Shown here one piece after another: positions 12,900 through 64,000 of a stretch of 64,000 bases of DNA. Made by a program: the position numbers and the translations under genes. The notes beneath the pieces were generated by a model. It was not told where the DNA came from and did no database searches. It was given only the letters and a program-made list of their open reading frames with translations. The stretch covers positions 17,835,899 through 17,899,898 of the forward strand of contig NC_057741.1 of assembly GCF_004010195.1 (NCBI RefSeq), in the 5' to 3' direction. Position 1 is the stretch's first letter. Each line of letters starts with the position of its first letter. The stretch is from Chiloscyllium plagiosum (lineage: Eukaryota).

Positions 12900-13070
12900 A
12901 AACAAACACAGAGAATGCTGCAGAAACTCAGCAGCTCTGTTAGCATCAGTGGAAAGAAAAACAGAGTTGTTTTGTTCTGAAAAACAAGTCATACCAGACT
13001 TAAAATGTTGACTGTTTCTCTCTTCACAAAATGCTGCCAGATCTACTGAGTTTCTGTTTGTTTCAAATTT
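12900..13070. mobile_element. Old fold-back (imperfect inverted repeat) of a PLE-type tail
   Basis: GAAACTCAGCAGCTCTGTTAGCATCAGTGGAAAGAAAAACAG pairs with CTGTTTCTCTCTTCACAAAATGCTGCCAGATCTACTGAGTTTC. A decayed CTGA...AAATGTT motif lies in the middle. Confidence 0.55.
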
Positions 13071-25190: not shown

Positions 25191-25947
25191 TTTAAGCTGT
25201 GTCCTCTGGTTCGGCACTCACCCATCAGTGGAAATATGTTTCCTACTGCCAGTATGATGAGGATGTTAGGAGATTACAGGGTGACCTGGACAAGTTAGGT
25301 GAGTGGGCAGATGCATGGCAGATGCAGTTTAATGTGGATAAATGTATGGTTATCCACTTTGGTAGCAAGAACAGGAAGGCAGACTACTACCTCAATGGAA
25401 TCAATTTATGTAAAGGGCAGTACAGAGAGATCTGGGTGTTCTTGTACACCAATCAATGAAGGCAAGCATGCAGGTACAGCAGGTAGTGAAGAAGGATAAT
25501 AGCATGCTGGCCTTGAAAGACTGAAGCGTGAAGCGACTGGGCTTGTATACCCTTGAAGATTGAGAGGGGATCTGATTGAGACGTATAAGATTATGAAAGG
25601 ATTGGACACACTGGCAGTAGGAAACCTATTTCCACTGATGGGTGAGTGCCGAACCAGAGGACACAGCTTAAAAATACGAGGTAGAGCATTTAGGACAGAG
25701 CTCAGGAGAAACTTCTTCACCCAGAGAGTGGTGACTGTGTGGAATGCTCTGCCCCAGAGGGCAGCGGAGGCCCACTCTCTGGATTCATTTAAGGAGTTGG
25801 ATAGAGCTCTCAAAGATAGTGGAATCAAGGGTTATGGAGATAAGGCAGGAACAGGATACTGATTAGGAATGATCAGCCATGATTATATTGAATGGCGGTG
25901 CAGGCTCGAAGGGCTGAATGGCCTACTCCTGCACCTATTGTCTATTG
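25191..25947 (+). mobile_element. CR1 3' fragment with an inverted 63-bp duplication at its 5' end
   Basis: WQMQFNVDKC, RGDLIETYKI, FFTQRVVTVWNALP, CCTATTGTCTATTG tail. 25191-25253 is the reverse complement of 25610-25672. Confidence 0.9.
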
Positions 25948-34765: not shown

Positions 34766-37322
34766 AATAAACATAGCTTTATGGTCCCAATGAAAATTTC
34801 CCCAATATTTAATTTGTACTGGATGTTTTGGTTCTGTTAAGTACTACCAACATGAATATTTACTCAAATAATTCACTGGAAAGTCCTGGCATAGATTGGT
34901 CATTAATAACAGAGCTCACACCACTTCCATTTATCAAATGTCCCCATCCCTAATTACCATTCCAACCTGACTACCCACTCTTGCCTCCCCCACCCCAAAC
35001 TTACACACTTGCATCCTTAAATTTCTCACTTGTTTTTGTGGCATATATCATTGAATAGTACACACAGTTGCTGTGGGAAAGGGAAAAGGGATGTGACCTC
35101 ACCTCTTCTGCACTCCACATTCTTCTGTCCTGGCACCTAAATTCTGTGATCCCTGCTGCACCCAGGATGGATTACAACTGCAGTTACCAAAAAAAGTTTG
35201 TAATTCATAATTGTCTTTTCTTGCTGTCAGCAAGAATCACATAAGCATGGTTGCTGACTGGAAGATTTGCTCCATTAAATTTCAATTTTAAATTTTTGGA
35301 ATGTTTTTCAAACTTATTGTAATTTTTCAATGTTGTAAAATTAGAATTTTTAAATTGACTTTTACTATATTATTCAAAAATGCTTCATGCATACATGCGC
35401 ATAACTAATACTAATGGGAACTTTGGTGAGCATGAAGTATTATAGTATCCATAGTGTTATATAACAAAGATACTTTGCACAACTAAGAATTATTCATAGA
35501 AAACTTGAACGTAACTTTGTGAAATATCTTTGATATCATAAAATCACTTACATTCTGCATCATGATCTTTCTGCTCCAACATGCATTACATTTCTGTAAT
35601 TTTTTTCATTCTAATTTGAGCAATTTATTTTTGACAAACTTCTACTTCACACCTAACAGCATTTTTCCAGTAGGATGAATGATGTTTCCCCAAATTCTCT
35701 TTGACTGACACACATTGACTCAAGTTATGTGAAGCTTTTGTTGGGCACTTCTTTGGAAGCAAGTTCATATGTGCATTTTCTTTTTATCTGACATGGTTCC
35801 ACAGCTCTTCCTCAGTACCTTCCTTCTTGTTTGGAGGTAGCATCTCCAAATTTACCTGTTCCCTTGTTCACTGACATTGGTTGGTCCTTGATTTGTGTAC
35901 TTTTTTTATAATTATAACAATCTATGCATGCTTCTGAAACCTAAGGAAGCAGCAGCCATTATACTTCTTAACTGTTATCAGTACAGGCAATTACAGAATC
36001 AATAGTTAGTTTCTGACTTCACAATATGAATACTTGAATTGATAGCGTGAGTTCTTTCATTCATTCAAGACAGTATCACTTCTGTTATATCTGCTTCGAT
36101 ATGAAAGTTTCATTCTGTACACAGTCACAACATGTCATTATTTCAATTTTCATAGTTTCCTCCATATATAGTGCATGCACATATAACTCGACAGGTATTT
36201 CTTTGCCATATTGTGCTTTACTGGAACTTGCAGGCAGGAGGAAAAACAAATCTTCCAGTCCATTTTTTTATTTTCAGTAGCCAGTGGAGAAGATTTAGAG
36301 ACATTCTCTCAACACTGATAGGCAGAAAATTGAAACAGCAAATGTTATGCTTCATTAATTCAAAGTAATGCTTATAAAACTGAGCTGCTGAACCAAACAT
36401 AACCCGCACATTTCAAGTTTCATGTCCACTTGATACTACTTGTCAGCAGCAATATGGTTTTTACCTCAATTAAGCCAGAGTCCAATAGTGTCAAAATCTC
36501 TGCAATTATCCCACATGCTCCAGAAGTTATTTCCACGACATGGTTACTTCTGTTGTCCCTTTGACAAAATTTACGATCCTTCTTTCATAGCCCCCCATCT
36601 TCCTCATCAGACCCAGTCCCTAAGATTACATTGCAGCCTCAGCACATCTGTTTCTGTTACTTCCATGCAATGGCAAGTCTTGCCTGTAACAGACAGCTCA
36701 GAGTTGTCTCCCATCGAAAAACCATACCATGTATTTGAGGTAGCTGGAACAATCTTTGGTTGTGGATCCCTTGTCAATTATATTTCCACTGAAGATCCTC
36801 ACTACTGAGCATACACCAAATCTTTGATCAAACCTAACAATGACAGTGATAGAACAATACAGCACAGAACAGGCCCTTCGGCCCACGATGTTGTGCCGAA
36901 CATTTGTCCTAGCTTAGATGTTTCACAAATATTGCTCTTTCCTCCAAACAGCATGAAGTAAGAACTTTGTGTTGAGAAAAAGAATTACTCCAATGGTAAA
37001 AGTAGATCCATAAAATTTTCAAAGCATAATTCCTTCAGAAAATAAACAGAATCTTCTCCCTTCCAGCACTGAATAGGAACTGAGTTCACAATGTGAGGGA
37101 GAAGAGCCAATTGAAGATTTGCGAAACGTCAATTAACTGATTTTGTTTAACATAACAAAAAAGACCATGCACAAACAGTCAAACATTACAAATTTTGGTA
37201 TGCATTAACCACAGTTATATTTAACTTAATATTTAATTTATAAGGGTTATTGAGAAACTCTTATTAAAACAGTCCTGGATGTGATTAGCAGCAGCAGTAA
37301 CAGTGGAGTTCATGTCCTGCAA

Positions 37323-38081
37323 TTACTTGTGAAGTCTCTGATGTTTCTGCAGGTGTGATGACTGAATGAATCCCTTCCCACAGGCTAAACAAGTGAATGG
37401 CCTCTCCCCACTGTGAACTCGCTGATGTATCAGTAGGTGGGATGAAGTAATGCATCCCTTTCCACACTCAGAGCAGATAAATGTCTTCTCCCCAGTGTGA
37501 ACCTGCTGGTGTGTCAGCAAGGTGGATGAACGAGTGAATCCCTTCCCACAGACTGAGCAAGTGAATGGCCTCTCCCCAGTGTGAGTGCGCTGATGGGCCA
37601 GAAGTTGCTTTATACTTTTAAAGCACTTCTGACATTCAGAGCAATGAAAAGGTCTCTCCTCTGTGTGAACTTGCTGGTGTGTCAGAAGCTCAGATGACTG
37701 AATGAAGCCTTTGCCACATGCTGAGCAGGTGAAAGGCTTCTCTCCAGTGTGAATTCGCCGGTGTCTCTGAAAGTTGGCTGACTGGGTGAATCCCTTTCCA
37801 CATACAGAACAGGTATATGGAGTTTTACCAGTATGAACTCGCTGGTGTCTCCGAAGGCTGGCTGATTGAGTAAAACCTTTCCCACAGTCGCAACAGGTAA
37901 ATGGTCTCTCTCCAGTGTGAATTCGTTGGTGTGTCAAAAGGCTGGATCTCTGTGTAAATTCTTCCCCACAAGCCAAGCAGCTGAATGGTCTCTCCCCAGT
38001 GTGACTGCGTCGATGATTTTCTATCTGGGATGGGTAACTGAATCTCTTCCCACAATATTCACATTTCCATGGTTTCTCCAT
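37323..38081 (-). CDS. C2H2 zinc-finger protein with 9 tandem Kruppel-type fingers and no effector domain visible (252 aa)
   Basis: Open frame [14 protein letters not shown]...HQRLHK with nine CxxC-12-HxxxH units and TGE(K/R)P-type linkers. The track's upstream start is a GTG; the first in-frame ATG is 38081. Splice acceptor CTCCTTTTACAG at 38277-38266. Confidence 0.92.
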
Positions 38082-39005
38082 ATTGGGGTTGCGTTGTCCT
38101 TCTCCAAGACTTATAATCAGTTGAAGACTGACCCACACATATTACACATGTATTCCTTTCTGCTATGATTGGCATGATGCTTTTTCAGATTGCATGGTTA
38201 GTTGAAATACTTCTTTCACATTCAAAGGCTGATGGCATTCAGGTTCTGAAGAATCGCGTAACGCCCTGTAAAAGGAGTTTACAAAAACTATCATTTTCAG
38301 TCTAAGGACCGAAATTTATGAGATTCTCTTCTCCTGCTTCCTGGTACATGATGGCTGTGCAATTGCCCTGTGGCGCACTGCCGACAGATGTTACAATGTG
38401 CTTTGCTGCATACTGATCTCTGTAAAAATGACAACCACTCTATTTTTGTTCCTTTTTACATTTTGATTCCTGGCATTTGTATAACTCAACTTTCCCTTAT
38501 TATGTTTCTGAAAGACATACTAAGTAAGTTTAAATGCCCAAAATATGAAGAAGCAATGTAAAAAAAGATAGACTTTATCACATTTCCATTTTTAAAAACA
38601 AAAGAAGTGTAAAATGGTTAATGCCAATATTTGTGGTAAAACATCCGGTACTTGATATTGTATTTATTTTAAAAATAAGTTTCAATGGGAGACCTTTTCA
38701 GTGCAATGATTGGGTTGTTATTTCAAGTCACTTCCTGTAAATAATAAACATTTGCTGATTGGCTGTTGTGGCATGGAATGTTTTTAATATAACATAAAAT
38801 CGAGGAGTGGCATCAAGCACAAAGGGGATCATGAGAGAAATTCTACCTTTGCAGGCAATGTATAAATTAACTTCATCGATGTTTAATATTATAAGTGTTC
38901 TGTTTAAAGTTTCTATTAAAATTATATGAATTATTGTATATCTACACATGTATGTGCAAAGGATCCTTGTTCAGTGATTGAGCAGATGTTGGCCCACAGG
39001 GAAGA

Positions 39006-39196
39006 CAGAGTTGAAAAATGTGGTGCTGGAAAAACACAGCAGGCCAGGCAGCATCCGAGGAGCAGGAGAATCGACGTTTCGGGCACAGCCCAAAATGTCG
39101 ATTCTCCTGCTCCTCGGATGCTGCCTGGCCTGCTGTGTTTTTCCAGCACCACATTTTTCAACTCTGGTACTCCAGCATCAGCAGTCCTCACTTTCT
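39006..39196. mobile_element. Fold-back PLE family A tail insertion (79-bp arms) with a 15-bp TSD
   Basis: 39006-39084 pairs with 39088-39166 with 2 mismatches. CCACAGGGAAGACAG occurs at 38994-39008 and 39197-39211. Confidence 0.92.
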
Positions 39197-40587
39197 CCAC
39201 AGGGAAGACAGTCATAGCAGCAGCATGGACTGGATTTGCCCTGAAGGACCATATGGAATTTCCAATACATCTAACTCCTCAGGTACTGCACCAAAATTTG
39301 AAATTTCTGACAGGCAATTGCCTACTGTTTGGAAACCTCTGAAAAGTCCCATCTCAATCCAAACCGTTTGGAGGGTTTCTACCTTAATTACCCAGAATAA
39401 GTTAGAGGAACTAAAATCTGTTCCAATTGCTGGATTGCTATTAAATTGAAACCCATAAATCACTAATGAATCCCCTATTTCTATGCCCCATGGACACCAA
39501 GCCTTCCCCACTTCAAGATAAATTAGACCCGAGCCCCAACTGCACCCCTTACATCTCACTCCACCTATCTAATCTTGCCAGTAATTGGAACTGAAGAAGT
39601 AGGGTTTTCAATCTAACCAGAAGATCTGGGCTGTTATAGTCAAAGATCTTATTGGTATTGATGGTGCACATTTATGTACAAAGCAACTTCTATCTTACTG
39701 AACAAATATTTTTCCTAAGTTCCTATTCCTATTCGTATTAACTCTACACATATAATAAATCATCTATTGAGTAGTAACAGTTATGTTCACAGATTCTATT
39801 AACACTATGTGAATTAGTTGAATTTTATCAAGTTTTTGAAACATCCTAACAATCTTAAAAAAAACAATTCTAGGCTGAAATTTAAAATTGGATAAGATGT
39901 TATGATCAGCACCAATTCTGTCGCGAATGTCATTTCCAGATGCAGCAGGGATTCTAGGCTGTAGCCATCACGACAGAGTGTGAAGCACAGGAGGGTTGAA
40001 GGTACCCCTGTACTTCTGTTATCATGGCATGCCAGACTCGTCTGTCTTGTACCATCCTCACACTTGCATTGCAGCTCATCTACAAAATTCATCATCACCT
40101 AGATCAATCCCTCTTTTTGCTGACCTCCACTTTGTTATTAGAATGGATCCATCTTTGCAGTTATAAGCAATTGAATAAAATAATGAATTTTGTTTTGAAT
40201 ATCACTTTAAAATAAAATTTATCCCTTTCTTGCAATTTCAAATACGTCTTAATTTGTCTTATGGGCTAGCTATGGATGTACATTTTTAGAGACAAAAAAC
40301 TGTTTTAGTGTTCAGATTTCATAGGTGCCAATCTTCTTCCACAAGTCTTAATTTTATGTTCAGATATCTGAGGCATACAGGAAAGTGGATAAAATACAGC
40401 ATAAGTTTTTTTTTCCTTGCTACAAGCTTGAGTTTCTTTGTGACATATTGTTCTTCTTCATAAAATTACTTCTAGCCATCTCTATATTAACTTGGACAAC
40501 TCTTAAGACCACAAGAAAAAGGAACAGAATGTTCTTAATAGAAATCGGAATATAAATTTTGGCTCCTTCACCATTCAATAGGAAATG

Positions 40588-40682
40588 GCCACAACCACCT
40601 GATGAAGGAGCAGCACTCGAAAAGCTAGTGCTTCCAAATAAACCTGTTGGACTATAACCTGGTGTTGTGTGATTTTTAACTG
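40588..40682 (+). mobile_element. Family C tail (probably PLE-derived) with a mutated hammerhead motif
   Basis: CACCTGATGAAGGAGCAGCACTCGAAAAGCTAGTG...CCTGTTGGACTATAACCTGGTGTTGTG; homologous to 45856-45952. Confidence 0.75.
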
Positions 40683-41136
40683 ACATACCTCGTCCACTTT
40701 TATGCTGTTTCCCTGTAACTCTGGATTCCCTTACTGATCAAGGATCTATTTTATCTATTAAATATGTACAAAGACTCTATCCCCACAGCTCTATGTAGCA
40801 AGGAGCTCAAAAGACTCTTTAAAGGAAGAAATTCCTCCTTGTCTGAGTCTCAAACTGGTGCCACTTTATTCTGAGACTATGCCCTCTAACCCTAGACTGT
40901 CCCAAGAAGGGAAACATTCTCTCTGCATTTACCCTGTCACACCCTGAATATTCTGTTCTTTTGTTCTCCCTTCCAAACTAAATAACTTTTTACTGTTAGT
41001 GTTCATGCTCAATCTACTTTCAAAATATATAGCAACGATGTGGAGGTGCTGGTGTTGGACTGGGGTAGCCTGCGCCTGATGAAGCGGCTGTGCTCTGAAA
41101 GCTTGTGTGATTTCAAACATACCTATTGGAATATAA

Positions 41137-41950
41137 GGCAAAAGTGAGTACTGCAGATGCTGAAGATTTGAGTCAAGAGTGTGGTGATGGAAAAACTCAG
41201 CAGGTTAGGCAGCATCCGAGCAGCAGGAAAAATCGAGATTTCAGGCAAAGCCCTTCATCAGGAATTAGGCTGAGAGCCTCAGGAGTGGAGAGATAAATGG
41301 GACAGGGATGGGGCTGGGGGGAAGGTAGCTGAGAGTGCAATAGATGGATGGAGATGTGGTAAAGGTGATAGGTTGGAGGGGAGGGTGGAGCGGATAGGTG
41401 TGAAGGAAGATGGACAGATGGGGCGGGTCATGAGGAAAGTTCTGAGCTGGAAGCTTGGAACTGGGGTAAGGTGGAGGGAGGGGAAATGAGGAAACTGGTG
41501 AAATCCACATTGATGCCATGGGGTGGAGGGTCCAGTGGTAAGGGAGTGGTGGTGGAAGAGGCCCAGGACCTGCATGTCCTTGGCAGAGTGGGAGGGGAGT
41601 TGAAGTTTTCGGCCATGGGCGGTGTGGTTGAATGGTGCGGGTGTCCCAATGTTTTCTGAAGCGTTCTGTACGTAGGCGTCCTGTCTCCCCAATGTAGAGA
41701 CCGCATCTGGAGCAATGGATACAGTAAATGACGTGTGGAAGTGCAGGTGAAACTTTGATGGATGTGGACAGTTCCTTTGTGGCCTAGGATGGGGGGGGAG
41801 GGAGAAGGTTGGGAGGCTTGGGCACAGGTTTTGCAATTCCTGTAGTGGCAGCAGGAGGTGCCAGGACAAGAAGGGGAGGATGGGTTGTTGGGGGTGGACC
41901 CGACGAGGTACTTGCGGAGGGAACAGTCTTTATGGGAAGTGGAGGGTAGG
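41137..41950 (-). mobile_element. Penelope-like element 3' fragment, family A, inserted into a family C tail
   Basis: Frameshifted GIY-YIG region and family A tail. TSD T(A/G)TTGGAATATAA at 41124-41136 and 41951-41963. Confidence 0.88.
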
Positions 41951-42399
41951 TGTTGGAATATAACCTGATGTTGCGTGACCTGACAAAATCTATAGAGTTT
42001 AGTTAACCTACATTTTGTGGGGCCTCTTCTGATTCTGCAAGTGATGTTTTGTTGAGTTTTCCACCTCCTGATGCTGCCTGGCTCTGTGTTCTTCCAGCCT
42101 CCAGGTTATCTACTTTGGATTCCAGCATCTGAAGGTTTTTCTTGTCTGTTAAGTACTGCTTTTGTTGCATGTATCTAATATTTCACAATCCAATTTTAAA
42201 AATGTTTGTTTAGTGTACAGATTGAACAATGTTATGACCAAAGGGCCACCCATGTATTTAACCCGAGCACACCCGCAAAATACCCCCGTTTCACGAACAA
42301 TTATCATTCAAATCTGCTTCAAAGGCTCTTTTCCTCCAAGCATGGCTCGCTGCTTTCGTTCTTCCAATCCCTACAACTCAAGCAAAACGATTATCATTG

Positions 42400-43170
42400 A
42401 GTTCAGTAAAAGACGGTTTATTTTTACCCAAGCGACCTCTCCACTCGCCGACCCCCAATTAGGCAGCTCCTCAAGCGCGATGGCGTCACCACGTCACGCG
42501 AGCGCGTTCATGGTAGTTAGCCAATCGCAGTTTGCACTCCGCCTCCGTGTGACCCCACCCACACGTACCTGTGCCCTGCCCCTCGACCGCACGTACTTGT
42601 GCCCCGCCCACACATAGATTTCCCCGCCCCTTACCACACGGCCCCGCCCCCTTGTCACACGGCTCCACCTTCGCAGCACGCCCCGTAGTTGACAGCGCCG
42701 CAGCCGGCTGCATACCTTTGATGCCCCGCCTCGTGGAGCACGGTGGGCGGTGACGCATTTCCTGTGGCCGTTGGCCTGGTGACGGTGAATCATCGCGCGG
42801 GGGCGGGGGGCAAAGCATTCCTTTTGAGCGGTGACGGTGTGAGTAAAGTTCCTCGGTACAGCTGAGGGATGTGGAGGCTTGGAGTCTTCTGCCTTAAGGC
42901 GGGAGGGCTGAGTGGCTCTCGGTTCACCTCTCCGGAGAGTGTCCAGCAGCGGAACCTGGGCCGGCCACTTGTTGCTGCCTCTCTGCCTGGTTAATTCCCG
43001 CTCTGTTTGCACCATTATGGGGGCTCTTATTGAGAACCACTCGGCCTTCAGTCAAGTGGCTGCATCCTTTACTTCCTTTCCCACTTGTTATGCCCCACAG
43101 AAGTGGGATGGAGGTGCCGTGTTTATTGGTAACCTCAGACTCGCGCACTTGCTCGTGGCTTTACGTTATT
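42400..43170. promoter_or_regulatory. CpG island, probable bidirectional promoter of ELMOD2 (+) and the ZNF gene (-)
   Basis: The strongest non-repeat CpG-dense, GC-rich stretch in the window. CCAAT at 42521, GC boxes at about 42623, 42642 and 42800, CRE-like TGACG sites, YY1-like GATGGCG at 42479. Candidate donors: GTGAGT at 42839 (+) and GTAAAA at 42427 (-). Confidence 0.8.
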
Positions 43171-44929
43171 TTGTTTTTCGAAGTATATTTTCCATCTCAA
43201 AGTTTTTTCCTTGATTTATTTTCACTTTCAACCTATTTCCGAGTTTTGTTTATTAAGTTGGGTGCAAAAAGCAGATATGGTTTACTTCCATTAAGGCCTT
43301 ATATTACAGAAGAAGTGTAGGTTGATCGAGAAGCTAACTTGACGTTCAACATAATTTATGACTCACGCTCAATTAGTAAACACCTCTGTTAGGTTTACAG
43401 CAGAACGCTAGGGAATGCATTGCAGAGCTTTTAAGAGTTTATTTTAAAACCCAGAGTAGTTCAATATAATTTGAATGCTGCATGGGGTGGACGCTACCTT
43501 GTCTATTTTGCTGTATTACAATGGTGTATAGCGCTGAGTCAGCTATAGTGAATGTGCTGCTTCAACAGCACATGGTTCTTTAGTTTTTACTTTTGCACAC
43601 TCTGCTTTCTCTCAATATTGTGCATTGTAAATCGCTGTCTGAAAAAAAAGTAGCTCATCAAATCAAACATGAATAAAGGAATGAAGGATCAATATAACCC
43701 AAACTTTGTTCTTTCATTCCATGCTAATATCGAAGAATCCCTCCAGTGTAAAAATAGGCCATTTGGCCTATCAAGTCCACAGTGATTCTCTGAAGAGGTG
43801 TGACCATGGAACATAGGAGCAGATTTTTTTTATCTGAGAGTTTTGGAGGATGATAAGTAAACAGGGCTTAGTGTCAGCAAGGACAAAGTTGATGATGAAA
43901 ATGTTGAGAAACCATATTTGCGCAAGTATCAGTTCGTCTGATGTAAACTCAATGCTTCACATCTGTTTAAAATATTCATCTGTTTTTCTCACATGTTCTG
44001 TATAGGTCAACCCCTATCCTTTAGCCAAAGAGTCCCATCTGCTTATATTTACCATAGTGCACACTGTTGAAATCAGAATTGCCCTGGTACAAATCTACTT
44101 GTACTACAAATAGAATAGTATGTTCTTGAAGTCAGCTATTTAGCTCCTAGGCTGATAGGCTAGCCCATTATCAAATTAGACATTGGTGATATGCTCAGTC
44201 TAAGACAGGATTGTAATAACAAAATAGAGTTTCTGCTAGAAGCAAAATAAAAACTGGTTTGATTTTCCTAATATCTTATTGGGATGCAAGACTTAACAAT
44301 GTAGGTGCAGGAGGAAAAACAATTGCAGGAGTTTATCAGACTCCAGGTAGATTGGCAACAATAAAACCAAGTGAGGACAGTCCCATTAAACTGGACATTA
44401 GAGAGGAAACTGAAGAATATGACATTGCTGTTCGAGTCAAAGACTACTGATTGGTTAAGGAGGCATGGTGTACTGTGGTCATTCTCACAATGTCATTTCT
44501 GGTTGCTTTAGCATTTTTTACTGCTGTATTAATATCGGAGGTTTGAATGTGAAGTTGTGGGAAAGGTGGGCACAGATTTGATGTGATAATTGTCTGAAGA
44601 AAAGTCTTATCAAACTCAAAAAGTTAACTTCGTTTCTCACCACAGATGCTGTCAGATCTGCTAAGTTTGTCCAGAACATTTTTTATTTCAGATTTCCAGC
44701 ATCTGCAGTACTTTTTTTATGTGAATGTGAGATTGAACAGTTCAGTAGTTGCAGAAGTACATAGTGTGTGAATGTCTAGGTTATGGTTCATGGAATCTTT
44801 AATTTTGGGAACTAAAGCATTTCAGTAGAAAATGTGTGAAATGCAATTGAGGAGCATTAAAGTGTAGTATGTTTGAACAGTTGAGGTAATTTCACTTTGA
44901 GGTTGCCTTTTTTGTTTCATGGAATCACA

Positions 44930-51707: not shown

Positions 51708-52390
51708 GGGAAAATGAGGTCTGCAGATGCTGGAGGTCAAAGTTGAAACTGTATTGCTGGAACAGCACAGCAGGTCAGGCAGCATCCAGGGAACAGGAGA
51801 TTCGACGTTTCGGGCACAGGCCCTTCTTCAGGAATGAGCAGAGAGTGTTCAGCAGGAGAAGATAAAAGGTAGGGAGGAGGGACATGGAGGACCTCCTCCG
51901 ACCGTCGGGTTGTTGTGGTTTGGCGGTGGATGAGTCCAATGACCTGCATATCCTCGGTGGAGTGGGAGGGGGAGTTGAAATGCTGTGCCACAGGTTGGTT
52001 GGGTTGGTTCGTCCGGGTGGCCCAGAGGTGCTCTCTGAATCGCTCCGCAAGTAGGCGGCCTGTCTCCCCAATATAGAGGAGGCCACACCGGCTGCAGCGG
52101 ATGCAGTAGATGATGTGGGTGGAGGTGCAGGTGAATCTGTGGCGGATATGGAAGTTTCCTTTGGGGCCTTGGAGAGAAGTGAGGGGGGAGGTGTGGGCGC
52201 AAGTGTTGCACCTCCTGCGGTTGCAAGGGAAGGTGCCGGGAGTGGTGGTTGGGTCGGTGGGGGGTGTGGATCTGACAAGGGAGTCGCGGAGGGAGTGGTC
52301 TCTACGGAAAGCTGATAGGGGAGGGGAGGGAAATATATCCTTGGTGCTGGGGTCTGTTTGGAGGTGGCGGAAGTGACGGCGGATGATGCG
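51708..52390 (-). mobile_element. Young Penelope-like element 3' fragment, family A (Neptune-like Cys linker plus GIY-YIG)
   Basis: PCNRRRCNTC...IIYCIRCSRCGLLYIGETGRLLAERFREH; CpGs retained; flanked by TGGGAGA on both sides. Confidence 0.92.
51800..51835 (-). ncRNA. Minimal type I hammerhead ribozyme motif (family A)
   Basis: AUUC-CUGAAGA-A-GGGC-cugu-GCCC-GAAAC-GUC/GAAU: intact core, perfect 4-bp stems I and II, palindromic ACGU stem III. Confidence 0.78.
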
Positions 52391-53329
52391 CTGGGAGATA
52401 CTACCTAAGTCGTGTTTTGGGTAATTCAACCACGCAAATATATTACTTCACTTAGTCAGCTGTCCCGTGTCTGCTCCTGCTCAGTGTGCGCTCCGCCTAT
52501 TCACGAGGTAAGTTTTTAAGTCAGTGATTCAACTTCCTGTCAGCCCTGGTCGATGCTCCCACTCTTCCTGCTGCTGAAGCAAAAAAAAACTGTCATGTCT
52601 TTTAAATGTTTTAACTGTACCTGCATCTGCCACTTTCTGTGGCAGTTCATTCCACATATGAAGCACCCTCTGTGTGAAAAAGAGTTGCCCCTCCGGTCCC
52701 TTTTAAATCTTTCTCCTCTTAGTTAAAAAATATGCCTGCTAGTTTTGAGTTCCCCTACACTAGGGAAAAGTCCCAGATCATTCCCTAACCTTTTAATCTC
52801 TGGGTTTTTTTTGTATCATTTTCAATTGTGGATTACAGGGACAGCAAGCAATGTGCTAAGTTGGATTTGACTTGAACTCTATGTATGATAAGATTATTTT
52901 TTGTTCTTCACTTTATTTTTATCCACTTTGTGCAACTGAATATTTCCATAAATTCTTTGACTAAAACCATACGTTAATTTATATCTCATTTACTCCACAA
53001 TTTTGTTATTGATAATTGTAGAATTTTATCTGGTATGAATTCAAGACTGGTCCATGTTATCTAGATTTTCATCCAGTCTCTCTTCATATAATGCATAGAA
53101 CTTTATTTATAGTTAATATTGTTAACGCAATAACTTGCAGATAAAAAATATTTTCATATTTTAATGCAATTATGATTATAAAGTTATAACAATTAAAACA
53201 ATTGTTAATCTGTACAAGTTTTATATCTGTCTTAATATACTTGTTTTGCATTCATACTTTAAACATATTTCCTGAAAATCTGATAAAATATTTAACCTAA
53301 AAGCTAAGTTTATCATTTCTTTCAAATAG

Positions 53330-57993: not shown

Positions 57994-59497
57994 GTTGTGG
58001 TTCTGTTCGCCAAGCTGGAAGTTTTTGTTGCAAACGTTTCGTCCCCTGGCTAGGCGACATCATCAGTGCTTGGGAGCCTCCTGCGAAGCGCTTCTTTGAT
58101 GTTTCCTCTGGTGTTTATAGTGGCCTGTCCCTGCCGCTTCCGGTTGTCAGTTTCAGCTGTCCGCTGTAGCGGTTGGTATATTGGGTCCAGGTCGATGTGT
58201 TTGTTGATGGAGTTTGTGCATGAATGCCATGCCTCTAGGAATTCCCTGGCTGTTTTCTGTCTGGCTTGCCCTATGATAGTAGTGTTGTCCCAGTCGAATT
58301 CATGTTGCATGAATTCGACTGGAACAACNNNNNNNNNNNNNNNNNNNNNNNNNNNNNNNNNNNNNNNNNNNNNNNNNNNNNNNNNNNNNNNNNNNNNNNN
58401 NNNNNNNNNNNNNNNNNNNNNNNNNNNNNNNNNNNNNNNNNNNNNNNNNNNNNNNNNNNNNNNNNNNNNNNNNNNNNNNNNNNNNNNNNNNNNNNNNNNN
58501 NNNNNNNNNNNNNNNNNNNNNNNNNNNNNNNNNNNNNNNNNNNNNNNNNNNNNNNNNNNNNNNNNNNNNNNNNNNNNNNNNNNNNNNNNNNNNNNNNNNN
58601 NNNNNNNNNNNNNNNNNNNNNNNNNNNNNNNNNNNNNNNNNNNNNNNNNNNNNNNNNNNNNNNNNNNNNNNNNNNNNNNNNNNNNNNNNNNNNNNNNNNN
58701 NNNNNNNNNNNNNNNNNNNNNNNNNNNNNNNNNNNNNNNNNNNNNNNNNNNNNNNNNNNNNNNNNNNNNNNNNNNNNNNNNNNGACATATCTGATCCAGA
58801 GTTTGGGTTGAATTTGTGGTAGGACTGTTTGTTCTCACCTTTGCATAACTGCCTCTGCTATTAGTCCCGAGATTGGTGATCCCATGGGTGTTCCGTTGAT
58901 TTGTTCGTATATCTGGTTGTTGAATGTGAAGTGTGTTGTGAGGCACAAGTCCAGTAGTTTAAGTATGCCATCTTTGTTGATAGGTTCAACGTCCTGTTGT
59001 CTGTTCTGTATGTCCAGTAGGTTGGCTATTGTTTCTCTGGCTAGGGTTTTGTCAATCGAAGTGAACAGTGCCGTCACGTCGAATGATATCATGGTTTCTT
59101 CTTTGTCTATGTGTATATTTCTGATGCACGCACGCAGACAACAAGCAACATGAATTCGACTGGGACAACACTACTGTCAAAGGGCAAGCCAGACAGAGAA
59201 CAGCCAGGGAATTCCTAGAGGCATGGCATTCATCCACAAACTCCATCAACAAACACATCGACCTGGATCCAATATACCAACCACTACAGCAGACAGCTGA
59301 AACTGACAACCGGAAGCGACAGGGACAGACCACTATAAACACCGGAGGAAACATCAAAGAAGCGCTTCGCAGGAGGCTCCCAAGCACTGATGATGTCGCC
59401 TAGCCAGGGAACGAAACGTTTGCAACAAAACTTCCAGCTCGGCGAACAGAACCACAACAACGAGCACCCGAGCTACAAATCTTCGCACAAACTTTGA
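57994..59497. mobile_element. Penelope-like element, family B (Penelope/Poseidon-like), with inverted ends and a 12-bp TSD
   Basis: RT motifs SFDVTALFTSI and GTPMGSPISG on the minus strand. EN end REFLEAWHS in both orientations. ATGGGAATATCT at 57982-57993 and 59498-59509. Confidence 0.9.
58030..58069 (-). ncRNA. Minimal type I hammerhead ribozyme motif (family B)
   Basis: GCA-CUGAUGA-U-GUCgCCU-agcc-AGGgGAC-GAAAC-GUU/UGC. Other copies at 59384-59423 (+) and 63492-63531 (-). Confidence 0.72.
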
Positions 59498-59909: not shown

Positions 59910-60100
59910 TGCTAGGCAGATGCTAGAAATCTGAAATATAAACGGAAGTTTATATGTTAGAAGTACTCAATAAGTCAGGCAGCATTTGTGGAGAGAGAAT
60001 GTTAATGTTTCAGGATAGTGACCTTTTGAGCAAAACATTAACTCTGTTTCTGTCTCACAGACACTCCCTCACCTAATGACATTTCCAACAACTTCTTTAT
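59910..60100. mobile_element. Old fold-back PLE-type tail
   Basis: TGTGGAGAGAGAATGTTAATGTTT pairs imperfectly with AAACATTAACTCTGTTTCTGTCTCACA. Confidence 0.45.
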
Positions 60101-61071
60101 ATGTGAGTCTAAACAGTATCCACATGCATATTTTCAGCAGTAGTCACCAGCTAAGACTGAGGAGTGGGGATTTTGTTTCTCTTTTAGTTCTTCTTAATTG
60201 CTGCATTGTAATGCCCTCCCTAAAGATGAGTAACTTCTCACAAAGCAAGGATGGAGCATATAGCTTAGGAATATGCCGCATGTGCATTTACTCAGCTTTA
60301 TTGCATTCATTTATCTATTTACCACCCCTTCTTGTAAAGTTGATTATTTGAGGTACGATTGCTTGGATGCTGATTATTGTCCACACATTACCCAAGTGGC
60401 TGTTCATTATGTGAATCTAGGTGGTGACTGAAAGTAGATAATTTGGCCGTGAGAACATTACAAAACTGCTTATCTGACATCCTAATGCTGCACATGTTAC
60501 TGGATAGCAATGAAAATTTATCCAATCTGCTCTCTCTCATACAGGCACCTGCCATTTCCCCAGACCTAAAATTTTGCTATTTCAACGCACAGCCCGAATT
60601 AGAATAAAATAAACATTAATACTCCAGATGTTTCCAATTCTGAAGTAAACCTTATTCTGAATGAACCCTGGCATATGTAAGTCAGAAATAACAATGGACC
60701 TGATTCTCTTAAAGTTTGTGAAACCTGAATTGGGTTGCTTTCTGAAGAGTTTCATTGCCATTTCAACTTCAGATATTTTAATATCAGTGCTTGTCCAAGC
60801 CACCTTATTTAAGTATGAAGTTAAGGTTAATGCAATAACAATCTTTGTTGCAGTTAATGAACTCCAGTATATTCAACCAAACTTTTAATTTATTCTTGAT
60901 TTTAAATAATGTGCTGAACATGATGGTTACTGTGCCACCTGGGAACAGTATTCATTGACAGACGGTTGGATACCAAAGAGTGCTAGCTCTTGGGCATCAT
61001 CCCTGCTGTGGTATTTGATGGGGAGGAGAAAGAGTCAAAGTATGTGGCTCCTTGGAGTATATGTTAACTAT

Positions 61072-62378
61072 TTCCAATCCTCCCACTTCCTCCAAACCAA
61101 AGGAGTAGCCATGGGCACCCGCATGGGCCCCAGCTATGCCTGCCTCTTCGTAGGATATGTGGAACAGTCCATCTTCCGCAGCTACACTGGCATCACCCGC
61201 CACCTTTTCCTCCGCTACATCGATGACAGTATCGGCGCTGCCTCGTACTCCCACGAGGAGGTTGAACAGTTCACCCACTTTACCAACACCTTCCACCCCG
61301 ACCTCAAATTCACCTGGACCGTCTCAGACTCCTCCCTCCCTTTCCTAGACCTTTCCATTTCTATCTCGGGTGACCGAATCGACATGGACATCTACTGTAA
61401 ACCGACCGACTCCCACAGCTACCTAGACTACACCTCCTCCCACCCTGCCCCCTGTAAAAACGCCATCCCATATTCCCAATTCCTTCGTCTCCGCCGCATC
61501 TGCTCCCAGGAGGACCAGTTCCAAAACCATACAACCCAGATGGCCTCCTTCTTCAAGGACCGCAATTTCCCGCCAGACGTAGTCGACGATGCCCTCCACT
61601 GCAAGTCTTCCACTTCCCTCTCCTCTGCCCTTGAGCCCCACCCCTCCAACAGCCACCAGGACAGAACCCCACTGGTCCTCACCTAGCACCCCACCAACCT
61701 CCATGTACAATGTATCATCCGCCGTCATTTCCGCCACCTCCAAACGGACCCCACCACCAGTGATATATTTCCCTCCCCTCCCCTATCAACGTTCCGAAAA
61801 GACCACTCCCTCCNNNNNNNNNNNNNNNNNNNNNNNNNNNNNNNNNNNNNNNNNNNNNNNNNNNNNNNNNNNNNNNNNNNNNNNNNNNNNNNNNNNNNNN
61901 NNNNNNNNNNNNNNNNNNNNNNNNNNNNNNNNNNNNNNNNNNNNNNNNNNNNNNNNNNNNNNNNNNNNNNNNNNNNNNNNNNNNNNNNNNNNNNNNNNNN
62001 NNNNNNNNNNNNNNNNNNNNNNNNNNNNNNNNNNNNNNNNNNNNNNNNNNNNNNNNNNNNNNNNNNNNNNNNNNNNNNNNNNNNNNNNNNNNNNNNNNNN
62101 NNNNNNNNNNNNNNNNNNNNNNNNNNNNNNNNNNNNNNNNNNNNNNNNNNNNNNNNNNNNNNNNNNNNNNNNNNNGGCCTATCACCCTCACCTTGACCTC
62201 CTTCCACCTATCGCATTTCCAACGCCCCTCCCCCAAGTCCCTCCTCCCTACCTTTTATCTTAGCCTGCTGGACACACTTTCCTCATTCCTGAAGAAGGGC
62301 TTATGCCCGAAACGTCGATTCTCCTGTTCCTTGGATGCTGCCTGACCTGCTGCGCTTTTCCAGCAACACATTTTCAGC
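61072..62378 (+). mobile_element. Penelope-like element family A with partial RT and tail, 14-bp TSD (contains an N gap)
   Basis: GVAMGTRMGPSYA...FLRYIDD...LPFLD...KPTD...SQFLRLRRICS. TATATGTTAACTAT at 61058-61071 and 62379-62392. Hammerhead motif at 62285-62320. Confidence 0.92.
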
Positions 62379-62965: not shown

Positions 62966-64000
62966 TGTAATGTACTAGGCCAGACCACTCAAAACATTCT
63001 TAAGCAGGCAGTTGAGGCCATAACGTTGCAATTTGTTTCGGTAAATTTACAGTGAAAATCACCCAGAGTAAGTTAGCGAGGTTGACTACTAGGTTAAAAA
63101 CAGACAAAACTTTATGCACAAAATTACACATTGAAATACAAAGAATAGAATAAAGAACCCCTACAGAACTCAGTCCATCCAAACTAGACTTAATTATACT
63201 ATTCCGAATGCACACAACAGTCCCTATAAGCAAACTCCCTTAGAAACCAGTATAAATGAATGGAACAGATGCTTATAGGTTGAAGGTAGAAGGGAGAGAG
63301 AGAGAGAGAGAGATTGGTTCCACACAGCTCATTGTTGAACTCCCAACTAGTTCTGGACAAAACTGAACTGCTCAGCTAGAGAGCTGACCATTCCCCTTTC
63401 ATTATACGACTCACATCCAAAGTTTGTGAGAAGATTTGTAGCTCGGGTGCTCGTTGTTGTGGTTCTGTTCGCCGAGCTGGAAGTTCTTGTTGCAAACGTT
63501 TCGTCCCCTGGCTAGGTGACATCCTCAGTGCTTGGGAGCTTCCTGTGAAGCGCTTCTGTGGTGTTTCCTCCGGCATTTATAGTGGCCTGTCCCTGCCGCT
63601 TCCGGTTGTCAGTTTCAGCTGTCCGCTGTAGTGGCCGGTATATTCGACTGGGACAACACTACCATTATAAGGCAAGCCAAACAAAGAACAGCCAGGGAAA
63701 TCCTAGAAGCATGGCACTCATCCACAAACACATCGACCTGGACCCAATATACCAGCCACTACAGGCCAGGGGACGAAACGTTTGCAACAAAAACTTCCAG
63801 CTCGGCGAACAGAACCACAACAACTCACATCTAAAACATGACCACTTTGGCCTGAAGTCTGATCTGCTTACATATAAACAAAAAGGCCTCTCAATACCCT
63901 TTAATCTCTGTGCCAAACCAGACTAATCGGCACCGAGAACTGTTTATTACTCCTCTGAAACAAACCAAGGATGTAGTATCCTTGAGAAAACTTACAGCTT
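62966..64000 (-). mobile_element. LTR, truncated by the window end, hosting a PLE insertion
   Basis: TGTAATGTACTAGGCCAGACC start and an internal (GA)n run, organised like 2027-2703. Confidence 0.6.
63418..63822. mobile_element. Short family B PLE insertion with inverted ends and a 9-bp TSD
   Basis: Tail on the minus strand (63418-63644) joined to a plus-strand copy (63645-63822). ACTCACATC at 63409-63417 and 63823-63831. Confidence 0.88.

Follow-up and report, generated by a model that had tools for sequence, protein, structure and literature searches.

The window, by which we mean the whole 64,000-nt stretch analysed here, contains a mirror-image insertion of 218 bases (38994-39211) and, among its other features, the C2H2 zinc-finger exon of a neighbouring host gene (Table 1). 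Re-examination of the sequence confirmed that the palindrome is real. An inverted-repeat search of the window located two 79-nt arms with 3 nt between them, differing at two positions, as the initial annotation had described. Both mismatches are in the right arm and lie in the contexts CGA and ACG, and are for this reason ascribed to CpG decay. The palindrome has a fold z-score of -22, and none of 200 shuffles matched its fold.

The apex, GGGC-ACA-GCCC, is stem II of a hammerhead ribozyme. In ordinary copies of the family this hairpin follows CTGAAGAA or CTGATGAA and precedes GAAACGTC, and it is the upstream half of the hammerhead, on the CTGAAGAA or CTGATGAA side, that is missing from the insertion. 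Sequence inspection thus upheld the earlier placing of the apex at stem II, with the CUGANGA half lost. CUGANGA occurs on neither strand of the insertion, which cannot form a hammerhead core and does not combine CUGANGA, stem II and GAAA on one strand as a functional hammerhead or retrozyme does. Rfam reported no hammerhead in the window at E values up to 1. Its miRNA-type matches (mir-2756, 51.7 against a gathering score of 61 bits) are below threshold and are expected of any long hairpin, and they were set aside.

The right arm continues for a further 32 nt, up to the 3' end of the family. The left arm stops about 30 nt short of that end, and the whole is enclosed by an exact 15-bp TSD, which shares CAG with the left arm, as had been noted correctly from the sequence. 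The TSD also shares CC with the tail. The 3-nt apex loop ACA differs from the loop of the subfamily, which is TTAT (ATAA in antisense) in 15 of 18 parsed copies (30 were fetched, of which 12 were unparsed). ACA is nearest to the antisense loop ATAA, and the loop is therefore continuous with the left, tail-less arm. A 3-nt gap was found in none of the 50 stem II loci described below, unlike the insertion studied here. Its apex may be a full hairpin that has since decayed or a blunt joint made once three bases of the loop had been copied, and the two cannot be told apart.

Table 1. Features of the insertion and of related repeats in the window. PLE, Penelope-like element; pLTR, pseudo-LTR.
Feature	Position	Strand	Remarks
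Older head-to-head repeat, other hammerhead-bearing family	12921..13056		One arm with whole decayed core; junction off stem II
C2H2 zinc-finger exon of neighbouring host gene	37323..38141	-	Profile match
Left TSD copy, 15 bp	38994..39008	+	Last 3 nt (CAG) also in left arm
Inverted pLTR arm, tail-less, 79 nt	39006..39084	-	Minus strand carries stem II 3' strand, GAAAC and GTC cleavage triplet (39073-39080)
Stem II junction GGGC-ACA-GCCC	39081..39091		Loop antisense, continuous with tail-less arm
Sense pLTR arm, 79 nt	39088..39166	+	Two CpG-decay changes within GAAACG part
PLE tail, 32 nt, on this arm only	39167..39198	+	Last 2 nt overlap TSD; tail as described in parts of PMC3846280, PMC8557442 and PMC11167929
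Right TSD copy, 15 bp	39197..39211	+	Exact match to left copy
Family copy directly downstream of GIY-YIG endonuclease frame	51710..52447	-	PF01541, E 9.5e-05, 23.1 bits (cut-off 22.6)
Older head-to-head repeat, other hammerhead-bearing family	59924..60111 (approx.)		Junction past stem II by about 6 nt, judged by eye from a relative in locus L158
Reverse-transcriptase fragment, N gap, then family pLTR copy (62305-62374)	60910..62374	+	PF00078, E 0.0036, below curated cut-off

The repeat is the pLTR of a GIY-YIG endonuclease-bearing (EN+) PLE, because copies of the family adjoin a GIY-YIG frame and a reverse-transcriptase (RT) fragment in the window. The features of such elements are all present: a hammerhead motif, an inverted 5'-truncated copy with a one-sided tail, a TSD around the whole unit, and GIY-YIG and PLE-type RT frames before the repeat, although the RT match (PF00078) is weak. 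The short left arm is the published PLE 'tail' signature and no chance truncation. No full-length PLE ORF was recovered, and the ORF lists of two loci (L181 and L055) contain no full PLE frame. Elsewhere in the window the right arm has six matches, and in five of these the hairpin is preceded by a hammerhead-type core. Exact copies of core, stem II and GAAAC number 61,825 in the 3.56-Gb assembly, and the marker of the window's subfamily occurs 2,136 times genome-wide. In the pLTR region of locus L059 stem II forms, but does not stand out (fold z -0.27). The insertion is an ordinary locus, and a real instance of an insertion type that has already been described. Two other inverted pairs were seen in the window: 25191-25672, with 66-nt arms 350 nt apart, and 63453-63824, with 60-nt arms 252 nt apart, the latter overlapping a frame that resembles the RT-bearing fragments at 58050-59399.

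Two older look-alikes had also been pointed out in the window. They are genuine head-to-head repeats, with self-alignment scores of 72 and 88 compared with shuffle maxima of 58 and 52, but they belong to other families and do not turn exactly at stem II. Contigs assembled from RNA cover the zinc-finger exon and 42837-43600. No splice joint across the insertion, which the initial annotation had placed in a presumed intron of the zinc-finger gene, was present among the listed joints from RNA reads on 36800-43600 (408 further joints were unlisted), which were swamped by repeat copies. RNA transcribed through the insertion would form a duplex of 79 bp. A>G differences in the RNA reads were unusable as a sign of editing, because reads of other family copies swamp the arms. 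In one RNA run, a contig of 576 letters aligns to 38289-38693. The depth is the same at 39273 as at 39280, which suggests that the alignment resumes near 39177. Judging from the depth tables, most of the palindrome, together with 300 bp of the left flank (38694-39176), may be missing in the organism from which this contig came.

The initial annotation had proposed that a single cDNA stopped in the stem II hairpin, snapped back, primed its own synthesis and joined the target, so that the ribozyme would seed MITE-like palindromes. Apex positions were therefore mapped. Head-to-head junctions were counted genome-wide using the same two exact 13-nt anchors, facing outwards with gaps of up to 60. 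The anchors are exact and rich in CpG, so that the counts favour young copies; the sampled loci were the first-listed places rather than random draws, and for gaps of 31-60 they comprised 15 of the 50 listed places. The genome contains 14,196 such junctions: two at gaps of 0-1, 130 at 2-6 (the stem II class), 7,151 at 7-30 and 6,913 at 31-60. The stem II share is 0.9% (130/14,196), and this is an upper bound, as gaps above 60 and junctions further 3' are left out; a different anchor gave 296 places with junctions 3' of stem II, outside the 14,196. Gap 4 accounts for 43 of the 50 sampled stem II loci (about 112 when scaled to 130), and gaps 2, 3, 5 and 6 together for seven.

Stem II is a small but real local junction peak, owing to its 4-bp microhomology (GGGC/GCCC). 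This much is what snap-back of a single cDNA would produce. The peak is however not dominant, since gaps of 7-30 average 298 junctions per gap length, and the suggestion that stem II is the preferred turning point did not survive the count. Within the 7,151 junctions at gaps 7-30, gap 30 made up 10 and gap 27 made up seven of 50 sampled. In most junctions one arm ends at the 5' edge of the ribozyme; among 65 palindromes that turn elsewhere than at stem II, 55 have a longer arm whose end falls 16-22 nt upstream of the stem 3' strand, which is the hammerhead 5' edge. The hairpin of the ribozyme is carried along and supplies bases for pairing; it does not signal a turn. Eight loci (L026, L040, L045, L046, L084, L088, L092 and L094) have complex junctions in which short stretches of the hammerhead region recur, as if the template had been switched several times before the ends were joined.

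MITEs are short, non-coding elements with long inverted repeats and a TSD, and insertions of the type found at 38994-39211 are like them in all these respects. They are unlike MITEs in that their ends and TSDs vary and each reflects the PLE subfamily from which it came. Among the 50 stem II loci there are 22 different apex sequences, following the parent subfamilies, and the short-arm ends span 13 to 79 nt in 46 of them. TSDs of 10-20 bp were found, with a different sequence at each of the 40 loci inspected; the length was 11-17 bp in 90 of 115 loci, with a mode of 15. There are thus no fixed terminal inverted repeats and no short fixed TSD, and no sign of amplification as a unit. The varied loops, short-arm ends and locus-specific TSDs support the independent origin of the palindromes, as had been anticipated. 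The same variation tells against snap-back of a single cDNA as a source of MITEs, and removes the idea of a ribozyme hairpin seeding MITE-like elements for this PLE family.

Of 115 palindromes, 107 carry the tail on one arm and not on the other; one locus scored two tails and seven scored none. In 91 of the 107 the short arm ends at position 67-82. Among the stem II loci, 46 are asymmetric; setting aside 13 ambiguous ones, the loop is owned by the tail-less arm in 25 of 33 and by the tailed arm in eight. In the other loci, the tail-less arm reaches further 5' in 35 of 61 and the tailed arm in 26. A fold-back would give a second arm containing nothing that is missing from the loop-owning arm. 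At 38994-39211, and in 25 of the 33 stem II loci, the second arm has a tail that its supposed template lacks. Simple snap-back is excluded at 38994-39211: a strand running through the loop there would have begun on the tail-less arm, leaving no template from which the other arm could acquire its tail. The loop there is, moreover, not the family loop. The eight loci in which the tailed arm owns the loop are of the kind that snap-back of a single cDNA predicts, and PMC3846280, in the part available, reads junction palindromes as self-priming. The single-cDNA account given in the initial annotation is very improbable.

A tail-less arm that owns the loop or reaches further 5' is not obtainable by self-copying, and this counts in favour of twin priming, in which two primers at the target each start a cDNA. 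A second class of insertion points the same way. In 536 insertions genome-wide, an inverted piece of the tail is fused to the 5' edge of the ribozyme. We fetched 20 of these (L216-L235), two of which were masked by N; the pLTR body is tail-less in all 18 that could be read, and most of the 20 lie within a TSD of 11-15 bp. Non-overlapping inversions of this sort are what twin priming should produce, and they count for it. As read from the sequence, these tail-only inversions appear to be its cleanest footprint seen. The TSD length, 11-17 bp with its mode at 15, also favours twin priming.

Self-priming has also been proposed for the PLEs of Adineta (Discussion of PMC3846280, as available), in a form where the 3' end of an antisense transcript folds back and primes tailed sense DNA, the RNA arm being later replaced and trimmed. 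This would yield a tail-less arm that owns the loop, which is the commoner orientation at stem II (25/33). Loci whose loop belongs to the tailed arm are not accounted for in this way, and neither are the 536 tail-only inversions. In vitro, the PLE protein of Anolis starts inside the supplied template RNA, at the bounds of the tail, after target cleavage (PMC11167929). We regard it as quite improbable for the insertions described here. The least probable explanation of all is that the assembly is at fault, or that a solo copy was rearranged at the DNA level after it had inserted. Inverted repeats do trouble assemblers (PMC8557442, in part); against this, a perfect 15-bp TSD encloses the whole unit, the CpG decay is arm-specific, and the same geometry recurs in 107 of 115 loci.

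The arms of a palindrome share a subfamily haplotype in 72 of 88 pairs, compared with about 11% for random pairing. In 42 of the 88 the arms are identical over 62 nt, and seven private variants are common to both arms. Therefore either both arms come from one source, or one arm was partly copied from the other. The concordance and the shared private variants are counted in favour of twin priming, but the second possibility fits the concordance equally well, and in this respect it counts against twin priming. In four loci the arms differ, at two subfamily-diagnostic sites (L025, L091 and L126) or at one site and the loop (L113), which suggests occasional use of two templates or later conversion.

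The junctions themselves bear on how the arms were joined. The 65 non-stem II junctions comprise 33 with 2-4 nt of microhomology, 10 with 1 nt, four with none (blunt) and 18 with filler. Of the 33, 13 would need a hairpin loop of 2 nt, and 20 have loops of at least 5 nt. The 2-nt-loop junctions, together with the six of 50 stem II loci that join symmetrically within the loop (ATAT or AT), fit annealing between two ends, and the 20 junctions with longer loops could be intramolecular. Fold-back would likewise allow the loci in which the tailed arm owns the loop (8/33) or reaches further (26/61).

Another explanation is a hybrid scheme, in which an internally primed cDNA snaps back at a short inverted match and copies itself, while a second cDNA gives only the tail and anneals to the copied strand. 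Such a scheme accounts for the near-identical arms with their shared private variants, for the local peak at the 4-bp stem II, and for the 20 foldable loops. It sits poorly with the 13 junctions that need 2-nt loops, with filler in 18 and blunt joints in four of the 65, and with the few pairs (L025, L126 and L091) that differ at two diagnostic sites, and the tail-only inversions require no fold-back at all. We consider the hybrid scheme unlikely.

Our preferred reading is that the insertion is a dead head-to-head pair of EN+ PLE pLTR ends, probably made by twin priming with annealing of the cDNA ends. Two nicks in the target, about 15 bp apart, would both serve as primers at the two PLE start sites, one for a cDNA that begins at the end of the tail and the other for a cDNA that begins about 32 nt further in. 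Pairing of a few complementary bases would then unite the ends of the two cDNAs. Both are likely to derive from the same source RNA, and most would stop near the hammerhead 5' edge, the presumed start of the RNA. At 38994-39211 both would have stopped earlier, at stem II, where GGGC/GCCC would provide the 4-bp microhomology. That two primers are needed, whichever way the apex forms, is very likely. Of the two modes, end-to-end annealing is the likelier and is a reasonably probable account of the apex, and snap-back of one of the two cDNAs is a minor possibility. The geometry, the counts, the asymmetry of the tail, the TSD lengths and the concordance of the arms are observed directly. We infer the order of priming, the single RNA template and the RNA start; all the evidence is read from final insertions, with no intermediate observed, and this counts against twin priming. 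Of 69 loci, 54 have a short arm that shares 1-5 nt with the TSD, a raw figure that the method of fixing the TSD may inflate.

The 5' edge of the hammerhead lies about 30 nt upstream of the predicted cleavage triplet, and in the TTAT subfamily 6,146, 5,724 and 2,917 copies end at three adjacent positions of it; 7,094 copies, with the commonest upstream variant, run at least 5 bases past it. The sequence at the edge, TCATTCC, fits an initiator consensus. Counted by eye, G stands before ATTCC in 65 of the first 100 cases in which that base is other than C, compared with 13 of 100 before TTCC and 19 of 100 before CATTCC; these neighbouring positions have a C bias of their own (54 and 62 of 100), and several of the edge Gs are templated by the partner arm or the TSD. 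The excess of G as a trace of cap copying is a lead and not a result. An apparently untemplated G at the ATTCC edge was seen by eye in palindromes L189, L203, L208 and L212 (of the set L186-L215). RNA reads on locus L059 listed no pile-up of molecule ends at the presumed RNA start, a result that counts against the preferred reading, and the fall in read depth at the ribozyme 5' edge of this locus only mirrors where genomic copies end. A run of pyrimidines that closes with AG is present on the minus strand of L059 (1540-1575), some 26 nt upstream of the edge, and resembles a splice acceptor.

A stronger form of the twin-priming reading can be put forward tentatively, with somewhat less than even confidence. 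EN+ PLEs may insert by obligatory twin priming on one RNA, with each nick passed to one of the two start sites at the bounds of the tail. The trailing cDNA would displace the leading one, and both would run off the RNA where its capped 5' end coincides with the first base of hammerhead stem I. If so, solo stubs, tail-only inversions and all the palindromes would be outcomes of one reaction, and the long-unexplained inverted pLTR with its tail would be the footprint of that reaction. Irrespective of this, more than 14,000 junctions place hard constraints on models of insertion: each insertion has a single tail, the stagger is 15 bp, the loop may belong to either arm, and some inversions involve the tail only. 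The locus is ordinary, and the population to which it belongs is of modest importance, but it offers good sequence evidence for insertion from two primers.

The published accounts were available in part, and the comparisons below apply to those parts. Inverted pLTRs, a one-sided tail of 30-40 bp, a TSD and junction palindromes have already been described (PMC3846280, PMC8557442), and the origin of inverted pLTRs with a one-sided tail is stated to be unresolved in PMC8557442. The insertion resembles those of EN+ PLEs such as Pen2a_Av of Adineta vaga, with head-to-head inverted pLTRs, a 30-40 bp tail at one end, a TSD around the unit and palindromes at the junction (PMC3846280; scheme in PMC8557442). 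Unlike in Adineta, there are only two pLTR stubs of 79-111 nt and no ORF, and the mode of the TSD is 15 bp compared with 8-10 bp in the Adineta examples (PMC3846280). The Adineta authors invoke self-priming on an antisense template (PMC3846280).

The family hammerhead is like the minimal hammerheads of metazoan PLE pLTRs, which have a type I core without a real helix III, and the insertion at 38994-39211 is unlike them in lacking CUGANGA on both strands (PMC4209133). Pairs of hammerhead motifs 100-700 bp apart on opposite strands are noted in the same paper, whose main text, in the part available, does not mention sharks. In Drosophila Penelope the start site is in the pLTR, 46 bp upstream of the intron (PMC2377424). 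The available parts of PMC2377424 and of the 2026 retrozyme preprint contain no junction model. No paper applying twin priming to PLEs was found in the literature searched, whose scope excluded most subscription papers and supplements, and none on shark PLE junctions, judged by titles and the openings of abstracts.

Twin priming itself is known from the 5' inversions of L1 (Ostertag and Kazazian 2001, cited in PMC9148063), where both target overhangs prime on one RNA and the inverted segment lies inside the TSD. The 536 tail-only inversions have this form. Unlike in L1, the two cDNAs here usually cover some of the same sequence and so yield a palindrome, and the site of the second start is fixed.

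The closest parallel in vitro is the PLE protein of Anolis carolinensis (PAc, or Poseidon), which cleaves each strand of the target, extends both, and has two start sites, one at either bound of the tail (PMC11167929). These two-strand cuts and two start sites match the twin-priming reading. The elements are alike in having a hammerhead in the pLTR, two RT starts bounding the tail, and both target strands cut and extended; ribozyme cleavage is unnecessary for insertion in the Anolis system (PMC11167929). They differ in that inverted insertions are not modelled for Anolis in the part available, and that starts there occur without target homology, compared with the 1-5 nt overlap of short arm and TSD found here (PMC11167929). 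Fig. S2 of that paper may bear on the structure of the junction. The two-primer model for the shark insertions is directly testable in this existing Anolis in vitro system.
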